The translations under genes were made by a program, and so were the position numbers. A model generated the notes under the pieces. The model was not told where the DNA came from. It saw only the letters and a list, made by a program, of their open reading frames with translations, and did no database searches. From NCBI GenBank assembly GCA_964505785.1, contig CAZDJZ010000011.1, positions 5,568 through 69,567 on the forward strand: 64,000 bases of DNA, given 5' to 3'. This DNA is from an uncultured Eubacteriales bacterium. GTDB lineage: Bacteria; Acidobacteriota; Aminicenantia; Aminicenantales; Aminicenantaceae. Below, in pieces: positions 5,364-57,609 of the stretch. Within the stretch, counting starts at the first letter, position 1. The number at the start of each line of letters is the position of its first letter.

Positions 5364-5674
5364 AACCTTATTTATTCACGGGCCGAGATTGCGGCAGACG
5401 ACGACAATTTTTCATTCAATTACGTGCTGAGGCCTGAGAAGCAGGCCGCAAGGATCTTATGGTGCTTCGTTCATTGAGTCGGCACCGATTCAATGACGAC
5501 GCAGTACAATATCCTTACGTTGCTTCACTTCGCTCAGGACAACCCTGGCGGGTTGTTTTCGGACTAATAGTTCAGGATAATTTGATTTTGGAACCCGGGA
5601 ATAATATACTAACCTTGATTATTCATAAAAAATTGCGATGTTTTAGCAATCTCAGCCTGTGAATAACCCAGGCT
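5364..5674. mobile_element. candidate MITE-like unit bounded by inverted family-A ends, carrying a family-B hairpin (5424-5540)
   Basis: The left end is aaccttatttattcacgggccgagattgcggcagacg (5364-5400). The right end is tagcaatctcagcctgtgaataacccaggct (5644-5674). An extra A-tract variant copy lies at 5611-5640, head-to-head with the right end. Confidence 0.45.
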
Positions 5675-5681
5675 AAAAATT

Positions 5682-5856
5682 ATGATAGGCATAATCGGTG
5701 TTATCGCTTTTTTAACCGTCCTGGCTCTATCCATGTTGATAACCGGCCTGGCCACCTCAGCCCTAGCCATGACTGGCCTCTCCCGCGAAGCCGCCCGCTT
5801 TCAAGCCCGGTCTGCTTTCACCGGAACCGGATTTACCACAAAAGAAAAAAAAAAAA
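5682..5856 (+). pseudogene. 5' remnant of a membrane pore-loop / TrkA-C-type protein gene, truncated at an A12 run
   Basis: MIGIIGVIAFLTVLALSMLITGLATSALAMTGLSREAARFQARSAFTGTGFTTKE matches, from memory, the N-terminus of TM + RFQARSAxTGxGFTT + TrkA-C proteins. Homology stops at the homopolymer A12 (5845-5856). The rest of the ORF (to 6065) overlaps the convergent 5895-7394 gene and looks like noise. Confidence 0.4.
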
Positions 5857-5894
5857 CGAATTTTGAAGTCCATATACTCTCTAATTTCAACTCT

Positions 5895-7394
5895 TCACTT
5901 TTCACTGTTTACTTTCAACATAAAGTCTTCCGCCAGCCGCAAATATTTCCTACACAACTCTCCCGCTTCCTCTTTCTGTTCCTTCCCTACATCTTCATCC
6001 CGGAGTTGGTAAGCTTGCACCAGGACTTGAACAACAGCCCGGTAGCATTGGTAAAAATCAATTAGCTTAAACAAATCCTGATCTTCCGATAGAGAAACAT
6101 ATTGATCCACCAGAACACCCGCAAGCTCATTACAATTGAAAAAATTTAAATCCATGGCTAAATAGGCTAAATCCGCAGCCACGTCGCAAGATGCGATTTT
6201 TTCTGAAAACTCGATAGCATCAAATAGGTATATTTTGTCGCTGGTGATAAAAATATTTTTTGACCGGACATCCCCATGCCCCCTTCGGACTCTTCCTTCA
6301 CGGTTCCTCTTTTTAAATAAGTCCTGGTGGCGGTTAAAGAAATTTTCCACACTTTGATGAATTCGCGCCAATCTCTCCCCTTCTCCTAACTGATCCTGAA
6401 TAAAATCTTTCAAAGCAAAAGCCGGTTCGAAATTGTCCCGGATGGCCTCTATCCTTCCGTATTCATCCCCTGCTTTATGCGATTGATTATGAAAATCATA
6501 CAAAATTCGGGCGATTTCCTGAATATGATCGTGAGTGACACTATTTTGTTCTAAGCGGTGATCCATCCGGTCTTTCTGGGGAAGCTCTTTCATTTTAACA
6601 CAGTAATCCAAAATCTCTCCTTCCCCTCCGAATTCGACCTTGCCGTCCCTGCGTACGACCGGTTCAACCCCCATATATATTTCCGGTGCAATGAGGGAAT
6701 TCAACATATTTTCGCGATGACAAAATCTTTTTCGTTTCTCCAAAGTTGAATAATCGACAAAACTGTATAAAACCGGTTTTTTTATTTTCCGCGCCCGGCT
6801 TCCGTTCAAAATGACCCAGCTCATATGTGTTTGAAATAAACGGCGGTCTTCCGTGAGTAAAGGATCGATGACGTCCTTATGCCCCTTCATGATCCGGATG
6901 GAATTGGCTGAATCCTGAACTTTTGCTTTCCATTTTCCTTCGTTTCGGGTGTCAATGGCAAAATCCGGGTCTTTAATATCCTCGAATTGCTTCTTCATCA
7001 TTTTGTATACTTTATAATCGGCTTCACTGGCGTCAGTCCCGGCTTGATAGCGGTCTTCTATCCTTCTTTTAACAATGTTCTCCGGGCAAACGACTTCGAC
7101 CAAAAAAAAGGATTCTCCGTGTTTCCGGGCCAGTTTTTCGGCCCGTTGCCGCAGGTCCCGTTTGAAAAAAGTCCCATCCAGAATTACAGATTTTCTCTGT
7201 TCAAGTATTTTCTCAGCCTTCTCCATCAGAACAGCATAAACACTCCGTTTATGCTGTTCTGAATAATCCTGATTTTTATCGATTTTCCTGCGCAGCTCAT
7301 CAGTGGATAATCTTTCCGCTCCCAGGTGACCAGCCAATTCTTTGGCCACAGAGGTCTTGCCGGTCCCCGGCAGACCTGACATGATTATGAGCAT
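5895..7394 (-). CDS. fusion protein: N-terminal P-loop kinase-like ATPase + C-terminal aminoglycoside-phosphotransferase-like (APH/ChoK fold) domain
   Basis: Walker A MSGLPGTGKTS at the N-terminus. C-terminal HGDVRSKNIFI...LFDAIEF resembles the HGDxxxxN...D catalytic and Mg loops of APH-type kinases. Confidence 0.8.
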   Translation of the reverse strand: MLIIMSGLPGTGKTSVAKELAGHLGAERLSTDELRRKIDKNQDYSEQHKRSVYAVLMEKAEKILEQRKSVILDGTFFKRDLRQRAEKLARKHGESFFLVEVVCPENIVKRRIEDRYQAGTDASEADYKVYKMMKKQFEDIKDPDFAIDTRNEGKWKAKVQDSANSIRIMKGHKDVIDPLLTEDRRLFQTHMSWVILNGSRARKIKKPVLYSFVDYSTLEKRKRFCHRENMLNSLIAPEIYMGVEPVVRRDGKVEFGGEGEILDYCVKMKELPQKDRMDHRLEQNSVTHDHIQEIARILYDFHNQSHKAGDEYGRIEAIRDNFEPAFALKDFIQDQLGEGERLARIHQSVENFFNRHQDLFKKRNREGRVRRGHGDVRSKNIFITSDKIYLFDAIEFSEKIASCDVAADLAYLAMDLNFFNCNELAGVLVDQYVSLSEDQDLFKLIDFYQCYRAVVQVLVQAYQLRDEDVGKEQKEEAGELCRKYLRLAEDFMLKVNSEK

Positions 7395-7401
7395 ATCCGT
7401 G

Positions 7402-8544
7402 TCACCTTGAATCCAAATCTACTTTTATATTTAAAAATTCAAGCATATCTTTCAGAGCCACCACGCCAATCAGCTTATCATTGTCTACCACCATCAGCCG
7501 GCTGCGGTTTTTTTGTTTCATAATGGAAAGGGCCTTTACCGCATCTTCATCCGGACTGACCGTGTTGTCCGCAGAGCAGCTTTTCATGATATCCTCAACC
7601 GTCTTCCCGGAACGTTCCTCTTTGGGAATCTCTTTTACATGGTTTAGTTCCACGCATCCGATTAATTTACCATTCTCCACAACCGGATACATCTTATAAT
7701 GGTACTCATAAATATAATCTTCAATCAAATCGTTTAGATTGGTGGATGGCGGAACCGTTACCGGCTCTGATGCCATAAACCGGGAAACCTTTTCTCCTTC
7801 CAGTGCCCGCCTTATCACAATTTGCTGATAAGACATCTGAGAAGCTCCCCGGATAAACATTCCAATCAAAAACATCCAGGCACCGCCGATGAAATTTCCG
7901 GAGATGGCTTCCAATACACCAAGAATGATTAAGACAAATCCGAAACCGGATCCTATTTTAGAGGCAACATTAGTGGCCCACCGGATATCATCCTTCCATC
8001 CCCATAGGATAGAACGGAGCACACGGCCGCCATCCAGAGGAAAGGCTGGAATCAAGTTGAACCCGGCCAAAATCAAATTGATCCAAGCCAGGTAATCAAT
8101 TACCCCTAGAAAAGGTTTATCCCAACCGGCGGTTTCACCTAAGAACACCACTCCGAACAGAAGAAATCCCAACACAATGCTGGATAAAGGTCCGGCAACC
8201 GCCATGAAAAATTCAGCTTTGGGACTGGGCGGTTCTTCCGTCATCTCAGCCACCCCGCCGAATATAAACAAGGTTATTCCTTTCATAGGCAAACCGAAGC
8301 GGCGGGCAATCAATGAGTGCCACAATTCATGAAAGACGATGGAAAACAATAACCCTATGGCGCCTGCCACTCCCATAATCCAATATGTGGATGTCGAAAG
8401 GCCCTCATGAAAATTAGGGAACAACCCTTTAGCCAGGGTCCAAGTGATGAGCAGTCCTAAAATCAGCCAGCTGAGATCCAGCTTGACTTCAAATCCGAAT
8501 AATTTAAATATGGTTATTCGCTTACCAAACATAGATGCCTCCAT
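7402..8544 (-). CDS. site-2 protease family (peptidase M50) with C-terminal tandem CBS domains
   Basis: HELWH zinc motif and LIPAFPLDGGR second motif in a polytopic N-terminal half. CBS-pair-like C-terminal half (...LIGCVELNHV...LIGVVALKDM). Confidence 0.9.
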   Translation of the reverse strand: MEASMFGKRITIFKLFGFEVKLDLSWLILGLLITWTLAKGLFPNFHEGLSTSTYWIMGVAGAIGLLFSIVFHELWHSLIARRFGLPMKGITLFIFGGVAEMTEEPPSPKAEFFMAVAGPLSSIVLGFLLFGVVFLGETAGWDKPFLGVIDYLAWINLILAGFNLIPAFPLDGGRVLRSILWGWKDDIRWATNVASKIGSGFGFVLIILGVLEAISGNFIGGAWMFLIGMFIRGASQMSYQQIVIRRALEGEKVSRFMASEPVTVPPSTNLNDLIEDYIYEYHYKMYPVVENGKLIGCVELNHVKEIPKEERSGKTVEDIMKSCSADNTVSPDEDAVKALSIMKQKNRSRLMVVDNDKLIGVVALKDMLEFLNIKVDLDSR

Positions 8545-8592
8545 TCAGGGTTATTATCTTTGTGTGTTTCAGCCTTGTCAATATAAATGAAA

Positions 8593-8970
8593 TCATTTGG
8601 ATTGGATCAGGATCAATCGGTCAAGGACCGCCCGAATGTTCTGATTCAGCCCGGTTTCATTCTCATACCCGATATAATTCGGCCGGAGCTGATGTGCGGA
8701 TGAAACCGTGTCACTATCGTTATCCGGCAGGATAAGCAGAGTCTTGACTGGAGTGATCAGATTTTTAATTTCCAGCAGCTGATGCAGATTGTCCTTGTCA
8801 TGCAGATACAGGATCAATACAAAAATTTCAGGGAATGATGCCAATCGCTGTTTTAATTCTCCCAGCGAATCATAGGGTTCAATACGTGCCGTGTCCGAAA
8901 AATTCTCAAATAATTCCTTTACCAGTTGATTTGATTGGGTTGAGTTCGAAGTGTAGATGACTATTCTCAT
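8593..8970 (-). CDS. stand-alone degenerate receiver-like (pseudo-receiver) protein
   Basis: The ORF track gives 8593-9045. MRIVIYTSNS... (ATG at 8970) looks like the real start. It has a receiver-like beta-alpha pattern, but the acidic pocket (DD in beta1) is replaced by TSNS and the phospho-Asp position is ambiguous (LILYLHDKD). Confidence 0.5.
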   Translation of the reverse strand: MRIVIYTSNSTQSNQLVKELFENFSDTARIEPYDSLGELKQRLASFPEIFVLILYLHDKDNLHQLLEIKNLITPVKTLLILPDNDSDTVSSAHQLRPNYIGYENETGLNQNIRAVLDRLILIQSK

Positions 8971-9212
8971 TTCTTTATTCCAGCCCTTTTTATATACAAA
9001 AATCATGCCATATCGATTATTTTCGGCTTTACTCTGATTTGACACTTTATTCCCGTGCCAAATGCCCGATACATGTTCACTCCGGCCGGATTTATCGTGT
9101 ATAATGGGACAGATGCGGCTGCAAGAAGCTACTCCGGCTTCTGGAAATAATTCCCCCTAATGCCAGGTCTCAGCAAACGGATATAAATCTAAAGATTTTT
9201 TTATGATCCGGA

Positions 9213-10619
9213 TTAACGCGGCTTTGATACACCGTGTTTTTTCAGCAGGGTATAAAGCCGGGACCGGGACAATCCGGATATTCTGCAGGACTGTTTGATA
9301 TGGCCCTTGGTAAAAGCCATCAGGTCTTGAAGATACCTTTTTTCCACCCTGTCAACAGCCAGGTCTCTCATGTCCTGAATAGGGGGCATATCTTCCAGGT
9401 TTTGATATCCGGAATATTCTTCCTCATCTCCGCCCCCGCTGTTCAGAGCCGATTTAAGCGCGGCAACCCGAATGTGGTCAGGAAGATGTTTGGGATAGAG
9501 CATCGGATCGTATTGAGCTGCGGAAATGGAGCGCTCCAAAGCCTGTATCAGTTCCCTTACATTTCCGGGCCAGGAATAGCTGGTCAGGATCTCCAGGAAT
9601 TCAGGAGAGGTTTTTTTTATTTCAGTTCCGTACTTCCGGCAAAATTTTTTCAGGTAATGGGAATGGATCTCAGGAATATCTGATTGCATCTGCCTCAGGG
9701 TGGGCAGCTCAATCACAATGGTCCTGAGCCGGAATAGCAAATCTTCCCGGAACCGGCCTTCTTCCACCATCCGGTCTAAATTTCTGTTGGTCGCAGAAAC
9801 CAAGCGGAACCGGCTGGTGATTTCTTTTTTACCTCCGACAGGTCGGAATTTTTTTTCCTGAAGCACCCGGAGGAAAGACTTTTGAATGGATAGCGGCAAT
9901 TCCCCTACTTCATCCAGGAACAAAGTCCCGCTGTCAGCTTGCTTAACCAGTCCGTCACGGTATTTATCCGCGCCTGTAAATGCGCCCTTGACATGTCCGA
10001 ACAGCACACTTTCCACCAGGTTTTCCGGCAAAGCCGCACAATCAACCACTACAAAATTATTTGCGGACCGCCCACTGTTATTATGAATAGCCAGTGCAAT
10101 CAGTTCCTTGCCCGTTCCGGTTTGGCCCGTGATCAAAACATTGGCATCGGTTTCAGAGGCCTGTGCGGCTTTATCCAGAGCAGACAACAATTGAGGATGG
10201 TTTCCAATAATGCCGTCACGGCTGATGGTTTCAGAGGATTTTCGGGGACCTTTTTTTTCCCGGTACTGGACTGCCCGGCTGAGAGCCAGCTTGATCTGGC
10301 GCGCGGAAGACGGTTTTTGCAAATAATCCCAGACCCCGCTTTTTATAGCCAATTCCGCCCCGTCCGGATCCCCAAAGCCGGTAATAATAATCACTTCCGG
10401 AGGGTCAGCTTGGGATTGAATCCGGGGCAACATGTCCAGCCCGTTTCCATCCGGAAGCCTTACATCTAAAAAAATCACATCGAATCCTCCGCCCGCAATC
10501 CGCTCCAATCCTTCTTCGCACGTCAACGCCTTTTCGGTCTTATGTCCGTCTTTTTCAGCTACGGCGGAAATAGCACGACTGACTTGGGGGTCGTCGTCCA
10601 CCACTAAAATTTGGGCCAT
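9213..10619 (-). CDS. sigma-54-dependent response regulator (NtrC/Fis family enhancer-binding protein)
   Basis: Receiver ([18 protein letters not shown]), AAA+ domain ([23 protein letters not shown]) and C-terminal HTH. The start abuts the stop of the upstream kinase with a 0-nt gap. Confidence 0.95.
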
Positions 10620-13301
10620 TTATTTTTCACCTTTTTTCTGATTCTTAGTTAAAACCGACCTTATAGACCGGGCTAACTTTGCCGTATCAACCGGCTTGGC
10701 GAGATATTTGGCAATTCCCGCTTTTTTCAATTCCTTCTCATTTATTTTTTCATTAAATCCGCTGATGAGAATCACCGGCATGTCCTTGTCTGCACATTTT
10801 ATCCTATGCGTCAATTCCAATCCTGTCATTTCCGGCATGGTTTGATCGGTTAAAATTAAATCATATTTTTCCGGATGCAATTGAAATTCGTTCAATCCCG
10901 CTGAAGGCGAATCGCTCGTCGTAACGGTGTATCCCAATTTTTCCAGGACCTTCTGCAGGCTTTTCAAAAGAAACGGCTCATCATCAATAACGTAAATATG
11001 CTCATTTCCCCCATGGAAGTCAAATGATTCCTCTTTCGTCTCTTGAACATTTTCATCGAGGGCAGGAAAAAACACGTTGAATGTTGAACCTTCTCCCGCT
11101 TCACTGTAAACATTGACTATCCCTTGATGTTTTCTGACTATACCATCCACAACCGCCAACCCCATTCCGGATCCTTCACTGGATTTTTTGGTTGTGAAAA
11201 AAGGATCAAAAATTTTATCAAATATCTTTTCAGGAATACCGCACCCGGTATCGGTTACACTTAGCTTCACGTAGCTGCCGGAGGTTAAGCTTGGATACAA
11301 TTTTATGATTTTCTGATTCAAGTGTATGGATTCCAAAACAACCTCGATTCTTCCCCTCTCATCTTCCAGTGCTTGGGATGCATTTGAACAAAGGTTCATT
11401 AAAACCTGATGTATTTGGGTGGGATTTCCATAAACAAGGTCGTTATCCGTTTGATAACAGGCATGCAGCTTTATGCCTGCCGGAATGGAAGCCTGCATCA
11501 GCCGCAAAGCTTCCTTAATAAGCGGAATAAGATGGACAGGCTTCATTTCATCCGGCTTCTGGCGGCTGAATGAAACCACCTGGTTCACAAGTTCTTTTCC
11601 CCGTTTGGAAGCGATAAGAACCTGTTTGAGATAATCCTTAACCTGATCATCGTCTTCAAGCTCCCACAAAGCCAGCTCCGTATTCAAAACAATCGGCATC
11701 AATATGTTATTCAAATCATGCGAGATACCGCCGGCCAGGGTTCCCAGCGCCTCCATTTTATGAGTTCTGCGTAAATATTTCTCCATTCTGACTTCGGCTG
11801 TGATATCCCGAAGCACCAGGACCGTAAAGAGAATGTTTTTGGAGCGGCGTGATTCTCTTATAGGAGATAAAAAAACATCAATATCAATTTTTTCGCCGTC
11901 TTTTTTTTGATAGGAGGTCTGCCCGCCAAAAACCGGCCTTTTTTTCTTATTGATATGCCCGGCTTCTTCAATATTTTCAATTAACTTCAAATCATCTATA
12001 GATTTTCCAATCAAATCTCCGGATGAAAAACCCAAGATATTTTCCAGCGCAGGATTAGCAAAAAGGATGTGCCCCCCGGTGTCATAGAGCAGAATGCCCT
12101 CCCGGATGTTAAAGACCGCGGCTGCCAGACGCCTGTTTTGTTCCTCCATATGACTGCGCCGAGATATATCCTGGACCGTGCCCACCATGCGGACAGGCTT
12201 TCCCTGTCTGTCCCGGATAACGGTTCCCCTCTCATGCAGAATTTTCTCCTTTCCCTGTGGTGTTTTTATCCTGTGTTCTACGGAATAAGGCTTCCCTTGG
12301 AAAAATGAATTCCGGATGGCCCGCCTGACTTTACTCTGGTCCTGGGAATAAACCAGGTCAAGAAATGATTTAAACGAAGGCGTGAATTTATCCGGATCAA
12401 CACCCATAATCCGGTAGATCTCCTCCGACCAAATGATCCGGCCGGAATCAATATTCCATTCCCAGTTCCCTAAATGAGCCATCTTCTGAGCCGCGGCCAG
12501 ACGTTTTTCACTTTGTTTGAGTCTTTTCTGGACCCGCTTTAAACCGGTTATATCCACAATAGAAAGAATGTGTTCCCCGGTTTCAGGAATCAAGGAAAAA
12601 GTGCCGATGAGAAATTTCATGGTTCCTCCGGCATCCACCAGGCGAAACTCTTCTTTCCAGGGAAGATATGCTTTTCCTGATTGAACCAGGTCGGATATGG
12701 GTTTAAATTTGGACCGATCCTCTTTGAAGATCAGCTCCAGCCATTTTTGCTTTCCCTCAATATGCGCCGCTTCCAATCCGGTCAGCCTCATGAATTGAGA
12801 GTTGGCTAATTGGATAGTCCCGTCCGAATTGAACAGGCATTTAGCGGTTCCGGTTCTTTCAAAAATTGCCCTGTAACGGGCTTCTGATTCAAGAACCCTG
12901 TGGTAAGCCTTTACTTGATTCCTCTGCAATTGAATATTCTCGGCTTCTCTCTTTATGACCGAGATGAGGCGTTCAGGAATATCTTTTTCAATAATATCCA
13001 AAATGCCAACCTTCATGGCTTGGCGGATTCTTGCTTTATCCGCGTTTTCGGCTATTAGAATGAGCGAAATATTTCCCGTATTATTTTTTATTTGTTCAAT
13101 CGCCTTATCATCACTGAAGGGAGCAGCATCCACATCCAGGATCAATATGTCAAAAGATTTCTTCAGCTTATCCTGCAAATCCCCAAACTCATTGATGGAA
13201 TCCACCACTCCGTGAATCCCGTCTGAATTGAGATGTTCGCGGATTAGCTCTAAGGTTTCCCCATTTACGCCTGCAAATAGAATGTTGATTTCAGTGAACA
13301 T
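10620..13301 (-). CDS. hybrid sensor histidine kinase (N-terminal receiver-like domain, PAS repeats, HisKA-HATPase, C-terminal receiver)
   Basis: 893 aa. H-box GGISHDLNNIL, ATPase boxes (DTGCGI, GSGMGLAVV), several PAS-like segments and a C-terminal receiver (IYVIDDE...ILTDQTMPEMTG...LAKP). Confidence 0.92.
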   Translation of the reverse strand: MFTEINILFAGVNGETLELIREHLNSDGIHGVVDSINEFGDLQDKLKKSFDILILDVDAAPFSDDKAIEQIKNNTGNISLILIAENADKARIRQAMKVGILDIIEKDIPERLISVIKREAENIQLQRNQVKAYHRVLESEARYRAIFERTGTAKCLFNSDGTIQLANSQFMRLTGLEAAHIEGKQKWLELIFKEDRSKFKPISDLVQSGKAYLPWKEEFRLVDAGGTMKFLIGTFSLIPETGEHILSIVDITGLKRVQKRLKQSEKRLAAAQKMAHLGNWEWNIDSGRIIWSEEIYRIMGVDPDKFTPSFKSFLDLVYSQDQSKVRRAIRNSFFQGKPYSVEHRIKTPQGKEKILHERGTVIRDRQGKPVRMVGTVQDISRRSHMEEQNRRLAAAVFNIREGILLYDTGGHILFANPALENILGFSSGDLIGKSIDDLKLIENIEEAGHINKKKRPVFGGQTSYQKKDGEKIDIDVFLSPIRESRRSKNILFTVLVLRDITAEVRMEKYLRRTHKMEALGTLAGGISHDLNNILMPIVLNTELALWELEDDDQVKDYLKQVLIASKRGKELVNQVVSFSRQKPDEMKPVHLIPLIKEALRLMQASIPAGIKLHACYQTDNDLVYGNPTQIHQVLMNLCSNASQALEDERGRIEVVLESIHLNQKIIKLYPSLTSGSYVKLSVTDTGCGIPEKIFDKIFDPFFTTKKSSEGSGMGLAVVDGIVRKHQGIVNVYSEAGEGSTFNVFFPALDENVQETKEESFDFHGGNEHIYVIDDEPFLLKSLQKVLEKLGYTVTTSDSPSAGLNEFQLHPEKYDLILTDQTMPEMTGLELTHRIKCADKDMPVILISGFNEKINEKELKKAGIAKYLAKPVDTAKLARSIRSVLTKNQKKGEK

Positions 13302-22552: not shown

Positions 22553-22585
22553 ATCTGCGGTAATCACGGCTTAAGCATAATACAG
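22553..22585 (-). repeat. family-A repeat, diverged copy
   Basis: atctgcggtaatcacggcttaagcataatacag aligns with the reverse complement of the family-A consensus at about 24 of 33 positions. It lies 19 nt upstream of the dnaX start. Confidence 0.4.
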
Positions 22586-22684
22586 TATTTTGTAAGTCCG
22601 TCGGATCCGGAGATGCAGGTTTGTATATAATTAAACCGTATTTTAGCATAAATGACGTGCAAATCAAAAAAGTATTTTACCTGG

Positions 22685-22716
22685 CCTGGATTATTAACGG
22701 GCCGAGACGGCCGAAC
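22685..22716 (+). repeat. family-A repeat
   Basis: cctggattattaacgggccgagacggccgaac. Confidence 0.75.
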
Positions 22717-22740
22717 AATTATTTCCAGGAATTCAGCATG

Positions 22741-27061: not shown

Positions 27062-27188
27062 AACCTGACTTATTATTCGAAAATCGATTTTTCATGGCAA
27101 TGGATAAGGGTCATCCGACTGCGAAATGCTTTTCAGATTTGAGATGTTATACCGCATCTGCGGCAATCCCGGTCCATGAATAATCCAG
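27062..27188. mobile_element. candidate MITE-like unit bounded by inverted family-A ends, inserted between pyrB and pyrI
   Basis: The left end aacctgacttattattcgaaaatcgattt (27062-27090) and the right end tctgcggcaatcccggtccatgaataatccag (27157-27188) are inverted family-A copies. Internally it carries a cagatttgagat (family D) word. No target-site duplication is evident. Confidence 0.4.
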
Positions 27189-27198
27189 AATAAAAAGA

Positions 27199-35898: not shown

Positions 35899-36045
35899 GT
35901 CATCACGAAGCGGCGTAAGGATCTTATGCGGCCTCGCGGAGGAGAGACGGAACCGATTCCTTCGGCGAAGCCATCTAAGATCCCCACGGCCGCTAATGCG
36001 GCCTGGAGAAGACATGTATATGCTGCCGCAGGCCTCAGGATGACA
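35899..36045. repeat. family-B long-hairpin element
   Basis: gtcatcacgaagcggcgtaaggatcttatg ... catctaagatcc ... gcaggcctcaggatgac. It starts 8 nt from the tRNA-Ser 5' end. Confidence 0.7.
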
Positions 36046-36046
36046 G

Positions 36047-36070
36047 CAATCCAGCCCGTGAATAATCAGA
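36047..36070 (-). repeat. family-A repeat (partial)
   Basis: gcaatccagcccgtgaataatcag, directly fused to the family-B element. Confidence 0.6.
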
Positions 36071-36520: not shown

Positions 36521-36640
36521 TGATTTTTATTCTACGCAGAATGCCCCCTTCAGGCAAATGCTTTAAAGTCAGAGTGAAAGAGAAACGAAGCAGTACAAGA
36601 CCTTTACGCCGCTGCGTTCCTCAGAATGACGGTTTTGCTG

Positions 36641-38644: not shown

Positions 38645-38667
38645 ACCTTTACTGACTTATTACTTAG

Positions 38668-38697
38668 CCTGGATTATTCACAGGCCGGGCTGCCGCT
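38668..38697 (+). repeat. family-A repeat (variant 3' half)
   Basis: cctggattattcacaggccgggctgccgct. Confidence 0.7.
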
Positions 38698-38726
38698 TAC
38701 ATCCTGAGAAGTGAAGCGGTCAGCCC
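38687..38726. terminator. 12-bp hairpin between convergent hflC and the PLP-enzyme gene (possible bidirectional terminator; no U-tract)
   Basis: GGGCTGCCGCTT-acatcctgagaagtg-AAGCGGtCAGCCC. Confidence 0.4.
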
Positions 38727-38738
38727 GTTCTGCAGACC

Positions 38739-39812
38739 TTAGGAAGACAGACAGGAGAGGTACTTCATCAGGCCTTGTTTATTTGGAAACAGGGCCGGAG
38801 TCCCTCCAGTGTGCCAAAAAACAATCTTATCCTTGTCTTCAAAATATTCCTTATCAGCTAAATCCAGCAGCCCGGCCATGGCTTTCCCAGTGTAAGCCGG
38901 ATCAAGAAAAATACCTTCGCTTTCTGCTGTCAACCGTATGGCGTCCGTCACCGGCTGATCTAAAATACCGTAGCCTTCTCCAATATAATCATCATTGATA
39001 TGAAGATCTTCCCGGGAAATATCGATCTCAAGCTCAAGCGCTGCAAGTGTTGATTGGATTATCCGCCAAATTTCATCTTCATAATCCTCAGGCTTCTCAG
39101 AAACGCTGATTCCAATGACTTTAGCTTCGGGATACAAAGCTTTTGCGGACAAGGTTAAGCCGGCTTGGGTTCCGCCTGATCCGGCGGCATGGACAATATA
39201 GTCCGGAGTGATGGCATGATTTCTCATCTGTTCCGACAATTCCAGGAAAGCATCAACATAGCCAAGAACTCCCAGCGGCTTTTCCATGGACCAACCGGGT
39301 GATGATCCTCCGATGGGAACCACGTATGGCTGATAGCCCCAATCCGTGATTTCCCGGACAAGCTCATCCATGATTCCCCGGATTTCTTCTTCCTGGATGA
39401 TTTTTCCAGGTTCGGCATCCATAATCCGGACTTGAGCTCCTAAAATATAATCAAGCAGTAAATTACCATCCGGCCCATCAGGATGATCACAGGTTTGAAA
39501 CAGCAGAAGGACCGGCTTTATTCCGAACTTCCGGGCCGCGGCCGCTGTCTGCAGGCACCAATTGGACTGCACACTCGCCCAAGTGACGACGGTATCCGCT
39601 TTTTTTGCAAGCATGTCCGGCAGGATATATTCCAGTTTGCGTGATTTATTTCCGCCGAAGGCCAGCCCTGTGAGATCGTCCCGTTTGATAAATATTCCCG
39701 GGCCTTTCAGCAGCCGAGATAAATTATTCAAGCGGGCAAAAGGGGTCGGCCGGGATATCAAACGTTCAATAGGAAAGAGCCGGAGCCGTGTCCGAAGAAC
39801 GGCTGCGTCCAT
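38739..39812 (-). CDS. D-cysteine desulfhydrase / ACC deaminase family PLP enzyme
   Basis: The FGGNKSRKLEY motif carries the PLP lysine, with a fold-type II pattern. The ATG at 39812 lies 2 nt after the upstream stop. The track start at 39839 overlaps the upstream gene. Confidence 0.85.
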   Translation of the reverse strand: MDAAVLRTRLRLFPIERLISRPTPFARLNNLSRLLKGPGIFIKRDDLTGLAFGGNKSRKLEYILPDMLAKKADTVVTWASVQSNWCLQTAAAARKFGIKPVLLLFQTCDHPDGPDGNLLLDYILGAQVRIMDAEPGKIIQEEEIRGIMDELVREITDWGYQPYVVPIGGSSPGWSMEKPLGVLGYVDAFLELSEQMRNHAITPDYIVHAAGSGGTQAGLTLSAKALYPEAKVIGISVSEKPEDYEDEIWRIIQSTLAALELEIDISREDLHINDDYIGEGYGILDQPVTDAIRLTAESEGIFLDPAYTGKAMAGLLDLADKEYFEDKDKIVFWHTGGTPALFPNKQGLMKYLSCLSS

Positions 39813-47754: not shown

Positions 47755-47790
47755 CGAAACTCCTTATTAGTTCGAAAACGGCACGTAAGG

Positions 47791-47909
47791 GTCGTCCTGA
47801 GGACGCGTTAGCGCCCAAAGGATCTTAAACTGCTTCGCATGATGGATAGGCCTACCGTCTCACCTGCCGATGCACTCTAAGATTCCCGTCGCTTCGCTTC
47901 GGGAATGAC
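47791..47909. repeat. family-B long-hairpin element (degenerate), preceded by TTAGTTCGAAAACG word
   Basis: gtcgtcctgagg...aaaggatcttaaac...ctctaagattccc...gggaatgac. The 14-mer ttagttcgaaaacg at 47767-47780 recurs at 30908-30921. Confidence 0.55.
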
Positions 47910-51570: not shown

Positions 51571-51719
51571 TTTTTAATCCTTCAATCACACTCCACCAGA
51601 CGTGCTAAAGTGCGCAGCAGCGAAGGATTTTATGCTGCCTCGCATCTGCGTCAATATCGACCGATGGAGAGTGCTTAATTTGCAATAAAGCAATAATTAT
51701 TCTTTATAAATATTCTTTA

Positions 51720-51748
51720 TTGACAAGCAGCTGAATTTATTATAAACT
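51720..51748 (+). promoter_or_regulatory. candidate sigma-70 promoter (TTGACA-N15-TATAAA / N17-TAAACT)
   Basis: ttgacaagcagctgaatttattataaact, about 200 nt upstream of the peroxiredoxin ATG and preceded by the direct repeat attctttat x2. Confidence 0.4.
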
Positions 51749-51768
51749 TTTTATCATTGTGATGAATT

Positions 51769-51917
51769 AACCTGGATTGTTCATGGGCCGAGATTGCCGC
51801 AGATACGGTTAGATCCGGCCCTCCTGAAAATGATTTATGTGTATACTACACCCGGAACAATGAAAATGAATCCATCTTCCGTCCTGGCGGGTCATTTTCC
51901 AAGTAATAACCCAGGTT
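51769..51917. mobile_element. candidate MITE-like unit bounded by inverted family-A ends, in the peroxiredoxin 5' leader
   Basis: The left end is aacctggattgttcatgggccgagattgccgcaga (51769-51803). The right end gtcctggcgggtcattttccaagtaataacccaggtt (51881-51917) reverse-complements to aacctgggttattacttgg.... Confidence 0.45.
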
Positions 51918-51948
51918 GATAGCAAATATTACTTAAGGAGGTTTTAAC

Positions 51949-52587
51949 ATGGAAAATCGAATTCCATTAATCGGAGAAAAATTCCCTGAGCTAAAAGTCA
52001 TGACAACCCATGGCGTAATGAATCTGCCGCAGGCTTATTCAGGAAAATGGTTCATTTTATTTTCCCACCCTGCGGATTTTACTCCTGTATGCACAACTGA
52101 ATTTGTTGCTTTTCAGAAACGGTACGATGAATTTCAAAAATTGAACACCGAGCTCATCGGCCTTAGCATCGACCAGGTTTTCTCCCACATCAAATGGGTC
52201 CAGTGGATTAAAGAAAATCTCAAAGAAGAAATCAAATTTCCCATCATCGCAGACCATGGAAACGCATCTAGAACACTGGGTTTAGTTCACGAAGCCAAGG
52301 GGACCAATACGGTCCGGGCGGTTTTTATTGTGGATCCTAAAGGCATTATCCGGGCCATGCTTTATTATCCTCAGGAACTGGGACGCAATATGGATGAAAT
52401 TGTGCGCATGATCAAAGGATTCCAGGTTGCAGAAAAAAACGGTGTCGCAATTCCCGCCAATTGGCCTAATAATGAATTGATCAAGGACAACGTTATCATT
52501 CCGCCTCCTACGGATGAAAAAACCGCTAAAGAACGCATGAAGCAAAAAGATTGTTTTGACTGGTGGTTCTGTCACAAAAAACTGTAG
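51949..52587 (+). CDS. peroxiredoxin (Prx6/1-Cys-like, AhpC/TSA family)
   Basis: [18 protein letters not shown] peroxidatic-Cys motif. 212 aa. RBS taaggagg. Confidence 0.93.
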
Positions 52588-52617
52588 TTCATTTTCCCGT
52601 TTAAATTAGTATTCTAA

Positions 52618-52657
52618 GGGGGCGGCTGGTTATCCCTGGTTCAGCCGTCCCCTTTAT
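52618..52657 (+). terminator. candidate rho-independent terminator after the peroxiredoxin gene
   Basis: GGGGCGGCTG-gttatccctggtt-CAGCCGtCCCC followed by TTTATTAT. Confidence 0.6.
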
Positions 52658-52707
52658 TATACCCGCCTCACACAACCCCCATATTATTCCCTAAGCGGAA
52701 ACCCTAT

Positions 52708-52760
52708 GTCATCCTGAGGCACAAAACGACGAAAGGGTCTCACAGGTTAGAAAGCCTCCG
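52708..52760. repeat. family-B left-arm fragment
   Basis: gtcatcctgaggcacaaaacgacgaaagggtctcacagg. Confidence 0.5.
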
Positions 52761-52774
52761 GATGGCTCATAAGG

Positions 52775-52801
52775 GATTTTTTGATTTTTGATTTTTGATT
52801 T
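52775..52801. repeat. 8-nt tandem tract (TTTTTGAT x3)
   Basis: gattttttgatttttgatttttgattt, the reverse complement of the tract at 45628-45651. Confidence 0.85.
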
Positions 52802-52865
52802 AATAAAATAACATCTTGCTTTATACTTTTCACTTTTACTCCACGAAGAAAAGGAGGTATGTATT

Positions 52866-53822
52866 ATGAAACTGGATGAATTATACAAATCAGCCGTATC
52901 CATCGGTATTAATAACGACCTGAGAGGAGAAAATGAAATCAAACGGATTCTTAAAGAAGAAAAAGAAACCTTCAAGAATCTAAAAAAAGAAGACAAAGAA
53001 TATTATGATAATGACCGTCTGTTCAATCCTTTTTCCGATTCCCGCATTCTGAATGGAGACCCTGAAACAGATATCAAAAAAATTCTCATCGGTATTGACA
53101 TGGAAACCGCGGAAATCCTGCTGGCGCAGCAATTGAATCAGATATCCAGCGCAAAAATTGACTTGATCATCGCTCACCATCCTGAAGGCTATGCCCTGGC
53201 CCAACTTTATGACGTAATGAAGCTGCAGTCAGACCTTCTGGTCCAATTCGGTGTCACCGTCAGTGTGGCGGAACAGCTGCTGGAAAAGCGCATCAGTGAA
53301 GTCGAATGCCGCCTTCTTCCCGCCAACCATAACCGGGCTGTAGATGCAGCCAAAGCTTTGGGATTCCCCATGATGTGCCTGCATACACCGGCTGATAATT
53401 GCGTAACCCGTTATCTGAAGGATCTTTTCGAAAAGGAAAAGCCTCAAAAAATAAAAGATATCATAAAGATTTTAAATGACATTCCGGAATATCAAAAAGC
53501 CCGGCATCTGCAGATTGCTCCAAAAATTGTCAGCGGCTCAGAAAATAATTCTTGCGGAAAAATATTCGTAGACATGACCGGAGGAACCGGAGGATCTGAA
53601 GACATTTACGACAAGTTCGCTGCCTCCGGCGTCAGCACATTAGTGGGAATGCATATCGGTGAAAAACATCTTGAGAATGCAAAAAAAGCTCATTTAAATG
53701 TCGTGATCGCAGGTCATATCGCCAGTGACACTCTCGGACTGAATTTGCTGTTCGACCAAATTGAAAAAAAAGAAAAGCTCGATTTCGTCGGGGTTTCTGG
53801 GTTTGAAAGAATCCGAAGATAA
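52866..53822 (+). CDS. NIF3 (NGG1p-interacting factor 3) family dinuclear-metal protein
   Basis: LIIAHHPEG, CLHTPADN and VIAGHIASD match the His/Asp metal-ligand pattern of the NIF3/YbgI family. 318 aa. Confidence 0.65.
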   Translation: MKLDELYKSAVSIGINNDLRGENEIKRILKEEKETFKNLKKEDKEYYDNDRLFNPFSDSRILNGDPETDIKKILIGIDMETAEILLAQQLNQISSAKIDLIIAHHPEGYALAQLYDVMKLQSDLLVQFGVTVSVAEQLLEKRISEVECRLLPANHNRAVDAAKALGFPMMCLHTPADNCVTRYLKDLFEKEKPQKIKDIIKILNDIPEYQKARHLQIAPKIVSGSENNSCGKIFVDMTGGTGGSEDIYDKFAASGVSTLVGMHIGEKHLENAKKAHLNVVIAGHIASDTLGLNLLFDQIEKKEKLDFVGVSGFERIRR

Positions 53823-53828
53823 GGAAAG

Positions 53829-53909
53829 GTGCTGGCTGTTGGGTATGGGGAAAATAAGCAAAAAGGGGATAATGAAGGAGGGTTATTAAAAATCTTACCC
53901 AGCCAGCAC
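53829..53909. other. long-range hairpin (9+5 bp stem, ~50-nt loop) 7 nt after the NIF3 stop
   Basis: GTGCTGGCTgttGGGTA ... TACCCAGCCAGCAC. Confidence 0.5.
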
Positions 53910-54035
53910 AATAAGATTTGATACTATTATAGCAAACATTTTCCCAAAATCAACCCCTCTGATTCAAATTATTTCATTTTTTTTAACTTTTTTTGAATGA
54001 CATCCTATGTCACCGTGAATGTGCAATAACATGAA

Positions 54036-54065
54036 ATCGCAATTTTTTTAGGAATAATTCAGGCT
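54036..54065 (-). repeat. family-A repeat, A-tract variant
   Basis: atcgcaatttttttaggaataattcaggct. Confidence 0.65.
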
Positions 54066-54094
54066 GATAATCAAGGCTAATCAATGGGCCCGAT

Positions 54095-55615
54095 TTAATG
54101 ACGGTGGATGTCCCGGTGCAGAATTTCACGGATTTCTTCCGGCTTTTTCAAGGAAGAAAAATCCACATGTTCCTGGTTTAGATTATTTATCATATATTCA
54201 ATCACACCCGGCGGAAAGATATTGTCCCGTTCATACAGCTGCCGCTTCTTTTCCAAAACGACAGCGGATTCAGCACAGCTTGCAGGTAAAGATTTGAATT
54301 TTTTTCTTTTATCATCCGACCAGGTTGTCCCTTTAACATAAAGCTTTTCAGCCATGGCCGCTGCTTCATCATGCTGAAATCCCCAATCCGCCGCCATGGT
54401 GATTCCCGCCAGCAGCAAATGGACCATCGCGCTGCCATCCGGGCTGCGGAGTTCTACGGTTTTGCTGTCTTCCCATTCTTCCAGCCGGGTGGATTCTTGC
54501 GGATTGACTTTGCGTGCCAAGTCTTGCTTATCCGACCAGGCCAGCGGTATACGGATTAAGGCATCCCGGTTCAGCCCGCTCCAAAAAATCCGGGTGGGGG
54601 CTTCCTGATCCGGCACCAGGCGGAAATAGGACGAGGCGACAGTATTACCAAATGCGGTCAGGGAATCCGCATACTCGCATAAACCGCCGACCAGCCTTTC
54701 AGCTTCTTTAGAAAGGCGGCCGTCCGCCCGCCGCATAATATTTTTTCCATTCTTATTCAATTGCAGATGAAAATGATATCCGTTGCCGGCAATCCCGGTT
54801 TCCAGCTTCGGCGCAAAAGTAACAGAGCATCCATTCCGGTACGCGATATTCCGGATCAACCATCGTGCCACCACCAAAGCATCGGCCATTTCTTCAGCCG
54901 GGCGGGGAAGAAACTCAACCTCTAATTGCTCGGCTTGCTTTCCGTTTATTTCATCCATGTCTGATTCCAGTTTCTCAATATGGCCGACTTCACTATGCGC
55001 ATACTTGACCGCACTGGTGATCTGGGTGATATGCCTTAGGATCTCCTTTAAAATCCGTCCGCTTTTTATAAACGGAGAAGATTCATGATAACCTCGTTGG
55101 CTTTCCAGAGAAAACAGGGTTTTTTCCTTATCAAAAATAAGATAAAACTCCAACTCACCTAAAGCAAAAAGCTCCAGCCCCGTGTTTTGTTTGAACAGAA
55201 TGCAGGCATTATGCAGAATAGTGTCGGGAGCAAAGCGTGCCCGCTCCCCGTCTTTGGTAAAATAGCGGCAGATGAAATTCAAGCTTTTTTCATCAAAGGG
55301 ATTCAAAAAAGCGGATTTATAGTCGGGCACAACATAAAGATCGGAAAGCGATGATTCCACCATTCCCTTAAATAAGCTGGACCCGTCCACTCTCTCTCCC
55401 TGGGTCAAAATGACCTCAGCCCGGCGTCTGTCCGGGACAGGGAGGTTCAATTCCTTTAACCGCCCATCCAGAGCAATGTAGTGGAAGGTGATGCGTTCGA
55501 TTTGTTTTTCTTCGATGATTTCCAATAAATCCGACCGCTGAAACTCATTTGGATATTTATTCAAAAGTTGAGACAGCGGATTTGTTAATGCGTATGAAAA
55601 TTGAGACGTAGTCAT
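54095..55615 (-). CDS. glutamine synthetase family protein (glutamate--amine ligase-like, substrate unknown)
   Basis: 506 aa. N-terminal beta-grasp-like domain and a catalytic core with SVTFAPKLETGIAGNGYHFHLQL (compare GS ...GSGMHxHxSL). Confidence 0.75.
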   Translation of the reverse strand: MTTSQFSYALTNPLSQLLNKYPNEFQRSDLLEIIEEKQIERITFHYIALDGRLKELNLPVPDRRRAEVILTQGERVDGSSLFKGMVESSLSDLYVVPDYKSAFLNPFDEKSLNFICRYFTKDGERARFAPDTILHNACILFKQNTGLELFALGELEFYLIFDKEKTLFSLESQRGYHESSPFIKSGRILKEILRHITQITSAVKYAHSEVGHIEKLESDMDEINGKQAEQLEVEFLPRPAEEMADALVVARWLIRNIAYRNGCSVTFAPKLETGIAGNGYHFHLQLNKNGKNIMRRADGRLSKEAERLVGGLCEYADSLTAFGNTVASSYFRLVPDQEAPTRIFWSGLNRDALIRIPLAWSDKQDLARKVNPQESTRLEEWEDSKTVELRSPDGSAMVHLLLAGITMAADWGFQHDEAAAMAEKLYVKGTTWSDDKRKKFKSLPASCAESAVVLEKKRQLYERDNIFPPGVIEYMINNLNQEHVDFSSLKKPEEIREILHRDIHRH

Positions 55616-55724
55616 TATTCAACTCCCAGACTTTTTTATTAATATGAATGAGCGTCTATTTTACATTCCTATATTCCATTTGTCGAGGATTGACAAAACT
55701 AATCTATCCCTTAACCTGAATGAA

Positions 55725-56825
55725 TCAGGAAAGATCCGATAAGGCCTTCTCCAGCCGCTTCAATCCCTCACCCAGCTCATCCGCATCCGCGCCGAATCCA
55801 ATCCGGAAATAACGGGGATTCATTTCAAAACACCGGCCCGGAACGATAAAAGTCCTGTGCTTTTCTGCCGCCATGCGGAAAAACTCTTCCGGATCAATGC
55901 CAATTTCCTGTTTAAGCCGGGGAAAACAGACTACCCCAGCTTCAGGTGGAATCCACTCTAGAGCGGATTGCCGCTCCATCCACTCTTTTAGTACAGCCAG
56001 GTTGGTTTGAATGCGCTGCCGTGCTCTCTCCAGATAGAATTCCTTGTCCTCCAGCACCCTGGCTGTAATCACTTCGCTTAGAGCATTATTGGAAATACTG
56101 ACCTGCTCCCTGACAGCAACACAGTGATCAATCCAGCTGCGGTTCCGGGATGCCATCCATCCTGTGCGGATTCCGGGAAGGCCGTAACATTTCGACATGC
56201 TGGTGATACTGACGGCATTTTCACTTAATACGGCTGCCGGCGGAAGCATGGCCTCGCTCGGGGCCAGGAATTGGTAGGTTTCATCGCTTAATAATGGGAT
56301 TCCATGATTTTCAGCCATGGCGATGATATTATCCAGGTCATCGCGGCTTATCATCGACCCCGTCGGATTATTGGGATGCGTGATGCTGATCAACTTTGTA
56401 TCCGGACGGATCATCTTTTCCAGCTCATCCAAATCAGGCCGGAATTTGTTTTCATAACGCAGCGTGAACAGGGAAACATCACAGCCCAAAGACCGGGGCA
56501 CCTCATACAAAGACGGATAATTCGGATGTTCAATGATTACATGTTCACCAGGATTCACCAGAGCCGACACCACAGCAAAATTCGCTTCACTTGCACCAGT
56601 GGTCACCAGAATATTATCCGCGTTCAACCCTTCATACTGTCCGGCTATAATGTTTCTCAGCTCCGGCTTTCCCCGGTGATAACCATAGCGGAGCCGGACA
56701 TCATTTAAAGCGACCGGGACCGCGCCCAGGGGAAGAGTTTTGACTGCGCTCTCCCCTTCATCATAATCAATTTCATACTGATATGTATCGAACCAGATTT
56801 CCAATTCCATTCGTTTATACCACAT
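55725..56825 (-). CDS. class I/II PLP-dependent aminotransferase (paralogue of 25394-26521)
   Basis: SMSKCYGLPGIRTGW PLP-lysine motif. The start is moved to the ATG at 56825 (RBS AAGGAGA 6 nt upstream), because the track N-terminus MRSFASLRMT... is translated family-B repeat. Confidence 0.85.
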   Translation of the reverse strand: MWYKRMELEIWFDTYQYEIDYDEGESAVKTLPLGAVPVALNDVRLRYGYHRGKPELRNIIAGQYEGLNADNILVTTGASEANFAVVSALVNPGEHVIIEHPNYPSLYEVPRSLGCDVSLFTLRYENKFRPDLDELEKMIRPDTKLISITHPNNPTGSMISRDDLDNIIAMAENHGIPLLSDETYQFLAPSEAMLPPAAVLSENAVSITSMSKCYGLPGIRTGWMASRNRSWIDHCVAVREQVSISNNALSEVITARVLEDKEFYLERARQRIQTNLAVLKEWMERQSALEWIPPEAGVVCFPRLKQEIGIDPEEFFRMAAEKHRTFIVPGRCFEMNPRYFRIGFGADADELGEGLKRLEKALSDLS

Positions 56826-56853
56826 TCCGTTTCTCCTTATTGAAACACATAAT

Positions 56854-56890
56854 GTCATCCTGAGCGAAGCGAAGGATCTCAAACTGCCTC
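56854..56890. repeat. family-B left-arm fragment
   Basis: gtcatcctgagcgaagcgaaggatctcaaactgcctcg. Confidence 0.6.
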
Positions 56891-56902
56891 GTTATAAAAA
56901 TT

Positions 56903-56962
56903 GTAAAGAGTGAAGAGTAAAGAGAAAAAATCAGAGAAAAGTGAGAAGTAAAAAGTGAAAAG
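56903..56962. repeat. purine-rich degenerate tract (GTAAAGAG / GTGAAGAG / AAAGTGA units)
   Basis: gtaaagagtgaagagtaaagagaaaaaatcagagaaaagtgagaagtaaaaagtgaaaag. Related words occur at 33937-33960, 34921-34945, 45598-45617 and 5891-5915. Confidence 0.8.
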
Positions 56963-56992
56963 TTATCCTATTAAATTAAAATGACTTAATGC

Positions 56993-57609
56993 ACCTGAAT
57001 TATTCACAAGCCGAGATTGCGGCAAATGCGAGGCGCAGAGATTTCAAAAAATAATCCTCGAAATAAAACAGATTGAACAATGAGGAAATGAGGAGTATGA
57101 ATAGAAATAGATGGACATATACAGCCCTGGTCTGGTTTTTTTTGAAGTCACAGGGGATTGATTATATGATACTTTATAGACGGTGAAAATGAATCCACAT
57201 GCTAAATACTACCTAACCTGGATTATTCACGGGCCGAGATTGCCGCAGACGACGGCAATACGTTAATTTATTGTCGTTCTGAGGAGCATAGCGACAAAGG
57301 ATCTTAGACGGCGCTTGCACGAGAAGACGATGACGCTTCATTCAGCGAAAAAGTCTAAGATCCTCACGGCCTGCCGGCGCAGGCCTCAGGACGACATTGA
57401 TTCAATCAAGGTCGTCACTTCACTGCGACGAGCTGCAAACCGGAAGATGCGGTGAGATTCGGCTCGCCCGAAGGGGTGAAAAATTGCGGTTATAATTTAA
57501 GGAGGCAAATGAAAAACTTTCAATTTGAACTTTTAATTAAAATCATGTTAATCGCTGATAAAAAAGTTTTTGCAAAAACATCGCAATTTTTTTATGAATA
57601 ATTCAGGCT
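56993..57609. mobile_element. composite repeat region bounded by inverted family-A copies (56993 + / 57579 -), with a nested family-A copy (57215 +) and a full family-B hairpin (57273-57395)
   Basis: The left end is acctgaattattcacaagccgagattgcggcaaa. The inner copy is aacctggattattcacgggccgagattgccgcagac. The right end is catcgcaatttttttatgaataattcaggct. No ORF of 60 aa or more is present. Confidence 0.4.
57273..57395. repeat. family-B long-hairpin element (best copy)
   Basis: Outer stem GTCGTTCTGAGG / CCTCAGGACGAC (11 of 12 bp plus one G-U). Inner stem AGGATCTTAGAC / GTCTAAGATCCT (12 of 12 bp). Confidence 0.8.

Follow-up and report, generated by a model that had tools for sequence, protein, structure and literature searches.

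What are the short repeats that lie scattered between the genes of this uncultured bacterium, and how did they get there? The question is raised by 64,000 nt of DNA (contig CAZDJZ010000011.1 of assembly GCA_964505785.1, positions 5,568 to 69,567; the whole stretch is called the window below), in which the original prediction, made from the letters alone, reported 15 copies of a ~35-nt word, here called family A. The window is ordinary chromosome, with pyrB/pyrI, dnaX, pyruvate:ferredoxin oxidoreductase, secG and glnA-like genes, and tRNAs. The results described below make it very probable that family A is one end of non-autonomous DNA transposons (MITEs, miniature transposable elements with inverted repeats), which would be mobilised in trans.

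The repeated word is the end of a larger element

When up to three mismatches are allowed, the 35-mer matches the window only at 51769 and 57215. Its 13-nt core, CCTGRATTATTCA, occurs ten times with at most one mismatch, compared to 0.32 ± 0.53 times in shuffles. The exact 35-mer is rare, and the core, its first 13 bases, is the real signal. The claim that the repeats form a real, dispersed and intergenic family, well above chance, is correct. A profile seeded from the window finds eight strong copies in it. Profiles trained on related genomes only find nine ends of the type called G (left ends, E 8e-16 to 6e-4) and three of the type called A (right ends, E 7e-12 to 4e-7), all of them where the original prediction had placed copies. 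Every copy in the window is intergenic, except a doubtful one at 22553-22585.

Many copies were also found beyond the window, in related genomes and metagenome contigs, as had been anticipated. A first survey, in which one genome per species was scanned for TTATTCAYRRRCYGRGATTGC, gave at least 96 loci, and a second one, in which metagenome contigs were scanned for the right end, gave 120 more (L001-L096 and similar labels denote these related loci from other assemblies). The window and the related loci together provide 99 non-redundant complete elements, on which the counts of anatomy, duplication and size are based.

A complete element runs from CCTGRATTATTCA… to …TGAATARKTCAGG, with the 13-nt core at both ends. 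The sizes range from 45 to 449 bp with a mode of ~253 bp, and 46 of the 99 elements measure 249-256 bp. The basic form is A+T-rich, 146 bp long, and bounded by terminal inverted repeats of 28 bp that match perfectly, CCTGACCTATTCATAAAAAAATGGCGAT. The commonest form measures ~253 bp; its left inverted repeat is interrupted, immediately after TTATTCA, by a cassette of nested hairpins rich in G+C. The 35-mer is therefore a composite of the terminal inverted repeat and the 5' arm of the cassette, its GGGCCGAGATTGCCGCAGA half being the hairpin arm. It is followed by hairpin modules of a few classes and by a closing stem shared by the copies (GATGCGGTGAGATCCGGCCCG); then come CCCGAAGGG, a stretch rich in A+T and the right end, …ATCGCAATTTTTTTATGAATARKTCAGG, which is likewise shared.

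Comparison of the forms shows that the G-type end is the ordinary end with the cassette inserted between TTATTCA and TAAAAAAAT. The element at L040:675-831 retains just the outermost bases of the cassette, TGGGCCGAAGGG. Some copies lack the A+T-rich interior, minis of 45-61 bp arise from internal deletions, and in forms of 320-450 bp a second palindromic family (with TGTCRTCCTGAGG ends) is inserted in the cassette.

This anatomy changes how the 15 reported copies are read. The sequences are present, and they are the ends of about ten elements: about nine carry the word, and the remainder are the opposite ends of the same elements. The unit is thus not a word of ~35 nt but an element of 45-450 bp with terminal inverted repeats. 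Similarly, the "subfamily" with an A5-7 tract turns out to be the right end of the element read on the opposite strand. Among the weaker copies, 27062-27090 and 51881-51917 are degenerate right ends, recognisable solely by their pairing with the left ends of the same elements, while 22553-22585 remains doubtful.

The second palindromic family, family B, has ends TGTCRTYCTGAGG…CCTCAGRAYGACA, of which there are nine in the window. It is free-standing at 60275-60398 (~124 bp) and nested, at 57272-57396, in a family-A element; its other positions are 36033-36045, 36619-36631, 47790-47802, 52707-52719 and 56853-56865. In related elements it also makes up the inner module called "class 1".

Target duplications, empty sites and recent copies

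Exact 4-bp direct repeats flank 42 of the 99 complete elements, whereas re-pairing the flanks at random, 5000 times, gave 9.1 on average and never more than 18. Nine further elements have 5-bp flanking repeats, and the 4-bp flanks are alike within one mismatch in 71/99 (36.4 expected). The duplicated words are TTAA (18 elements), CTAA (6), CTAG (3) and TTAG (1), and also CTAT, ATAA and TTGG. Since 21 of the 42 exact duplications are non-palindromic, they are direct repeats and not extensions of the inverted repeats. A duplication of TA, as for IS630/mariner-like elements, was considered on the basis of the yTAr flanks and is rejected by the non-palindromic duplications CTAA, CTAT, TAAG and TTGG.

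Orthologous empty sites were found for three pairs of loci. L037, an 80%-identical ortholog, lacks the element at 51771..51915 (E7 below), and its promoter region continues through a single TTAA. The pairs L015/L184 and L133/L119 align across the junction; in each pair, the two flanks put together exceed the empty site by exactly 4 bp. The window and L052 were rejected as a further pair because their downstream genes differ.

In the metagenome-assembled genome (MAG) JAWODN01, three to four copies at unrelated loci are 96-97% identical over 254 bp. Many contigs of the MAG CAYRTV01 stop 15-50 bp inside an element, and the sole Logan contig with the window gene 57625-58584 also ends inside one. 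Mobility, which had been put forward as one possibility among others, was a sensible guess.

The elements of the window

The elements are listed below; coordinates in brackets are profile matches with their E values.

E1, 5366..5576, + strand: 211 bp; G-type left end (5361-5400, E = 4e-12) followed by an internal hairpin module; degenerate right end, AATAGTTCAGG; flanks TTAA and ATAA; upstream of a P-type ATPase gene (3310-5313, - strand).
E2, 5613..5672, - strand: minimal 60-bp form; left end at 5672 (5646-5677, 4e-9) and A-type right end at 5613 (5610-5643, 3e-7); exact 4-bp target duplication CTAA (+ strand).
Doubtful copy, 22553..22585, - strand: E = 0.025 with the window-seeded model, no match with the independent profile; overlaps dnaX at the 5' end of its open reading frame (ORF) as called.
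E3, 22685..22729, + strand: 45-bp mini, CCTGGATTATTAAC…AATTATTTCCAGG; left end (22681-22707, 9e-6); no clear target duplication; a 45-bp relative lies at L066:5153-5197.
E4, 27064..27189, - strand: 126 bp; takes up the spacer between pyrB and pyrI, in the orientation of the operon; left end (27155-27193, 8e-12) 10 nt past the pyrB stop, degenerate right end ~40 nt ahead of the pyrI start; flanks TTAT and TTGT.
E5, 36044..36070, - strand: left-end fragment with a 1-nt deletion (36044-36067, 6e-4); directly 3' of the stop of a deaminase gene and joined to a palindromic module of family B (~35900-36045), just ahead of a tRNA gene.
E6, 38668..38727, + strand: left end (38663-38689, 1e-7) and a short closing hairpin, GGGCTGCCGCTT…AAGCGGTCAGCCC; right end unrecognisable; TTAG on both sides (38664-38667, 38739-38742); between convergent genes.
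E7, 51771..51915, + strand: 145 bp; left end (51766-51804, 9e-12); target duplication TTAA/TTGA; preceded by a promoter-like site, TTGACA-17-TAAACT (51720-51748), and followed by the ribosome-binding site of a peroxiredoxin gene (start 51949).
E8, 54036..54063, - strand: solo A-type right end (54036-54066, 4e-7), with a second partial end copy at 54068-54083; between convergent genes, adjoining the stop of a glnA-like gene.
E9, 56994..57030, + strand: truncated left end and the start of a class-2 hairpin module (56993-57028, 4e-11); 111 nt upstream of the start of an aminotransferase gene (56882, - strand).
E10, 57217..57607, + strand: full-length, 391 bp; exact target duplication CTAA; left inverted repeat 57217-57229 (57212-57250, 8e-16) and right one 57595-57607 (57576-57610, 7e-12); G+C-rich hairpin cassette 57230-57476, which holds the nested family-B element, and A+T-rich module 57477-57594; right end 17 nt ahead of the start of an ornithine cyclodeaminase-like gene (57625).

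The left end of the 60-bp E2 is followed, 9 nt further, by an ORF of 127 codons (5682-6065, + strand). Its N-terminus is hydrophobic, it matches nothing in Pfam, and the 3' end of a kinase-like gene on the opposite strand overlaps with it. The ORF could be spurious, or a fragment of a gene. Units resembling GTAAAGAGTGAAGAGT / GTGAAAAGT form purine-rich runs at 56900-56965 of the window, on the complementary strand near 5865-5905, and at L052:590-640. They adjoin gene ends and family-A copies, and may be a third small repeat.

The putative mobilising enzyme

The window and ~1.4 Mb of related DNA, a partial sampling, were searched for a transposase. A tblastn search of this DNA with the ISEcp1 transposase gave nothing below E = 1, and no multi-copy ORF was found in the window or in the sampled related DNA. 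Distant convergent pairs of ends (0.7-4 kb apart) were considered as autonomous elements and rejected, as they enclose ordinary genes.

Other indications come from the ends and the targets. Family-A ends begin with CC (CCTG…), and the duplications are of 4 bp, sometimes 5, at TTAA/YTAR. The insertion of piggyBac at TTAA makes a 4-bp duplication, and members of the IS1380 family duplicate 4-5 bp (ISfinder tables). IS1380 transposases are prokaryotic relatives of the TTAA-inserting piggyBac (PMC10140906), and members of the family bear outward promoters at one end (PMC9330008). The ends of ISEcp1 are CCTAGATTCTACGT (left) and CCTAAATTCCACGT (right), those of family A CCTGGATTATTCAC (left) and CCTGAATTATTCAT (right). 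Nine of 14 positions are the same as in the left and right inverted repeats (IRL/IRR) of ISEcp1, in a single comparison with a chance p of about 0.01-0.002, and position 5 is G in the left end and A in the right end of both. Family A thus resembles IS1380/ISEcp1 in its CC ends, in these nine terminal positions and in its 4-5 bp duplication at A+T-rich sites, TTAA being the commonest here. It differs in having no transposase gene, and no IS1380-like ORF was seen in the 1.4 Mb of related DNA.

Members of the IS5 group duplicate YTAR, and their ends start with GG or GA. The words CTAA, TTAG, CTAG and TTAA duplicated by family A agree with this target, whereas its CCTG… ends do not agree with these termini, and no IS5-type transposase was seen. 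IS701 makes a duplication of exactly 4 bp and has the terminal consensus ---YACT-Y--YR (PMC2266710). The length of the duplication would fit, but positions 4-7 of the family-A ends are GGAT/GAAT instead of YACT, which does not fit this consensus.

As the ISEcp1 search came back empty, the assignment to IS1380 is a lead and not a result; judged by the ends and targets, the chances that the mobiliser is of the IS1380 type seem roughly even. In the proposed mechanism, a DDE transposase recognising the CC-initiated ends would act in trans, the likeliest source being an IS1380-family (piggyBac-related) enzyme encoded elsewhere in the genome, and would insert the elements at TTAA/YTAR with a duplication of 4 or sometimes 5 bp.

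Position and orientation with respect to genes

Context was counted for the 65 oriented complete elements with callable neighbours. Gene starts were taken from a crude longest-ORF caller, the bias of which would hit both ends equally. The right end points toward a gene start in 48 elements and toward a stop in 17 (p = 1.5e-4), with a median distance of ~30 nt; most right ends are 5-60 nt away from the start, in many cases immediately ahead of the ribosome-binding site. The left end shows no preference (starts vs stops 33:32) and is ~110 nt away when it faces a start. Tested end by end, 18/49 right ends lie at most 40 nt from a start, compared to 4/96 left ends (p = 7e-7). Of the elements between co-directional genes, 25 have the orientation of the genes and 10 the opposite one; 23 elements occupy divergent spacers and seven convergent ones.

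TTAA is palindromic and insertion should therefore not fix the orientation, so that selection after insertion is the likely cause of the bias. G+C-rich hairpins may be harmful beside a ribosome-binding site, or the right end may provide promoter or leader functions. Many right ends contain the motif TTGCAA-17-TATGAA, which was considered as an outward promoter. It fails the consensus scan (the final T is missing) and its -35 is not conserved but varies among copies, and no promoter is therefore claimed.

Once inserted, the elements would be co-transcribed with the neighbouring genes as strongly folded RNA. Selection would then keep the stems and favour the orientation in which the A+T-rich right end, and not the G+C-rich hairpins, lies beside the downstream ribosome-binding site. 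Alternatively, the right end might supply a weak outward promoter. Because E4 fills the spacer between pyrB and pyrI, pyrI must be expressed through or after a folded insert of 126 nt. The family reaches housekeeping regions, with insertions between promoters and ribosome-binding sites and within operons.

Coding capacity and RNA folding

A transposase gene would not fit into elements of this length. The sole recurrent ORF, open in about half of the copies, has 30 codons (MKNFPFELSIKIMLIADKK…FFYE*, MKN[FV]PF[ED]L…IADKK…AKTSQFFYE*), lies in the A+T-rich module and ends in the right inverted repeat; it is found at 57508-57600 of the window and at homologous positions in L025, L038, L059, L064 and L087. 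A small protein was rejected, as the variable sites number 15/16/15 at codon positions 1/2/3, the frame is broken in many copies and conservation of the ribosome-binding site is lacking. The ORF may be a relic of a parent element.

The full element folds with -140 kcal/mol (z = -8.2). The consensus structure obtained from 13 elements of ~253 bp from several species has seven helices, which include a terminal stem, the closing stem of the cassette, inner hairpins and a 13-bp stem that closes the A+T-rich module. In the consensus, 95% of cells are paired, compared to 40-48% in slid controls. Compensatory (two-sided) changes are seen in 16 of 56 pairs, compared to 7.2 ± 1.5 in shuffled data (0 of 500), and in 27 elements an A/G polymorphism in GGGCCGRG follows T/C in the partner arm. 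The copies are related and the counts not independent, so that this covariation is a real but not decisive sign of selection on structure. All the wobble pairs common to many copies are G·U on the left-to-right strand, while singleton G·U pairs are about as frequent as A·C; this mildly favours the left-to-right strand as the one that folds.

It is conceivable, if rather doubtful, that the hairpin cassette acts as an RNA module with a function of its own, for instance as a signal for processing or stability or as a translational insulator, and that the transposon has carried it across an Aminicenantes-like lineage, to operon junctions and 5' leaders by the hundred. Selection on the cassette would then explain the covarying stems, the fixed orientation and the ~87% identity of elements between species compared to ~70% for their genes, and a domesticated MITE would provide a host-wide regulatory layer.

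With the Rfam covariance models, only three tRNAs reach the threshold in the window, and nothing does in the elements; the best match to the elements is M23 RNA (RF03006), at 20-27 bits compared to a gathering score of 41.2. The sub-threshold M23 matches recur on the closing-stem module (window 57426-57475, L026:4306-4355, L053:2709-2758). This resemblance may be due to chance, or a related repeat may have served to define the RF03006 motif.

Alternative explanations

Several observations weigh against MITEs mobilised by an enzyme of the type proposed here. No autonomous element or transposase with family-A ends was found in the window and the ~1.4 Mb of related DNA. The assignment to a transposase family uses features of ends and targets only, and a 4-bp duplication of YTAR also fits IS5, just as 4 bp fits IS701. 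The context statistics depend on longest-ORF gene starts, and for the right end the consensus promoter scan gave no outward promoter. Finally, stem covariation is unusual for purely selfish DNA and leaves room for a host function; this is also true of the conservation of the elements, which are 86-87% identical between CAYRTV01 and JAWODN01, compared to 68-72% for the neighbouring genes. Such high conservation could result from transfer of an active family between species, or from selection.

These last points lead to the most serious rival, namely that the repeats are functional structured RNAs (cis-regulatory leaders, or processing and stability signals) kept by the host, their mobility being incidental or extinct. 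The compensatory changes in the nested stems would be expected of such RNAs, as would the strand bias of the shared G·U pairs, the orientation toward downstream gene starts and a conservation across species that exceeds that of the neighbouring genes; one copy lies within the pyrB-pyrI operon and another within a 5' untranslated region. On the contrary, the target duplications, the empty sites and the 96-97% identical copies are the marks of recent transposition. The elements occupy every gene context, convergent spacers included, next to genes of unrelated functions; derivatives that have lost all hairpins by deletion persist, and no Rfam family reaches the threshold. We therefore regard this explanation as unlikely.

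Two other possibilities are much less probable. Palindromes of the REP/BIME type, spread by a RAYT (IS200-like tyrosine) transposase, are also intergenic, hairpin-rich and mosaic, and some lie between the genes of operons. But family A has terminal inverted repeats of 13-28 bp and 4-bp duplications, and neither a Y1 transposase near any copy nor a REP-flanked RAYT gene was seen in the sampled DNA. The suggestion of a RAYT/IS200-type mobiliser in the original prediction does not agree with these ends and duplications, and such an origin is highly improbable. Least probable of all, and barely credible, is the idea that the palindrome TGAATnATTCA is the operator of a global DNA-binding protein and the repeats its regulatory sites. 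The core of the A-type end does contain this 5-1-5 palindrome, and right ends gather just upstream of start codons, but the sites always come as inverted pairs around homologous DNA, with target duplications, the neighbouring genes have unrelated functions and many copies lie downstream of genes. MITEs mobilised in trans thus remain the preferred explanation.

Comparison with known small repeats

In size, copy number, inverted ends, target duplication and lack of coding capacity, family A agrees with a MITE; the feature that is missing, from the window and 1.4 Mb of related loci, is an autonomous partner with matching ends. It is a new sequence family of a well-known kind, and not a new kind of system. 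The view that it is not a named repeat stands: besides the absence of an Rfam match at threshold, the literature search did not find the sequence, nor any paper linking Aminicenantes with MITEs.

A close parallel is provided by the Correia elements of Neisseria, which are likewise small, non-coding, bounded by inverted repeats, present in many copies and often immediately upstream of genes, with size variants produced by internal deletion. They are co-transcribed into a long hairpin, which is likely for family A too. Their ends carry promoters and RNase III sites (PMC10969869). These promoter and RNase-processing properties are features of Correia elements, to which family A is likened by its position and predicted folding. 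Correia elements differ from it by a TA duplication and 26-bp inverted repeats, whereas family A has 4-bp duplications at TTAA/YTAR, an unrelated sequence and hosts of another phylum.

To our knowledge, BOX elements have neither inverted ends nor target duplications, and the same holds for REP/REPIN and IS200/IS605 elements, which lack terminal inverted repeats and target duplications. The pneumococcal BOX/RUP/SPRITE clusters and the BrickBuilt elements of Porphyromonas consist of interchangeable modules, with small elements inserted in one another (PMC10969869, PMC4596501). Family B nested in family A, and the cassette within the left inverted repeat, recall this organisation, although the sequences and hosts are unrelated. 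REP elements depend on RAYT transposases (PMC2817692). With REP/BIME/REPIN elements, family A shares an intergenic and sometimes intra-operonic location, the formation of hairpins and a mosaic make-up; it differs from REP/REPIN by its terminal inverted repeats and target duplications, which rule out that it derives from REP/REPIN or IS200/IS605.

The current understanding of MITEs is unchanged by family A. Most worth attention are the hairpin cassette, with its covariation, and the strong bias of orientation with respect to start codons, which together make a reasonable test case for the tolerance or use of MITEs by bacteria at the RNA level. The family also documents active cut-or-copy transposition, for which an IS1380/piggyBac-type enzyme with a TTAA preference would probably be responsible, in a candidate phylum without cultured members.

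Hosts and consequences for assemblies

Among the matches listed, ~80 loci carry the full left end. Their hosts are MAGs labelled Aminicenantes, Aminicenantaceae or Acidobacteriota, and third-party annotation (TPA) MAGs labelled "uncultured Eubacteriales". Scattered matches in other phyla fall inside ABC-ATPase genes, at the level expected by chance for the scan pattern. The family is present in at least 15 species-level MAGs and appears to be confined to one Aminicenantes-like lineage.

The genes of the window are 79-83% identical to contigs of CAYRTV01, which is itself syntenic with JAWODN01, an Aminicenantes MAG, at 68-72% identity. For this reason the name "Eubacteriales" seems to be a matter of mislabelling. 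More generally, TPA MAGs with this label (such as CAYRTV01, CAYULB01 and CAZRGM01) have synteny, 66-72% nucleotide identity and a common MITE family with Aminicenantes MAGs.

In short-read assemblies of these uncultured bacteria the family causes breaks, with contigs that end inside elements, and it can mislead binning and gene calling. On the other hand, its ends provide a simple marker of the lineage. Separately, L040 (JAWOBA010000200, from a 'Desulfatiglandales' bin) and L044 (JAWODN010000113, from an Aminicenantes bin) are 99.5% identical over 2264 bp; they probably represent one population binned into two MAGs, or one contaminated bin.

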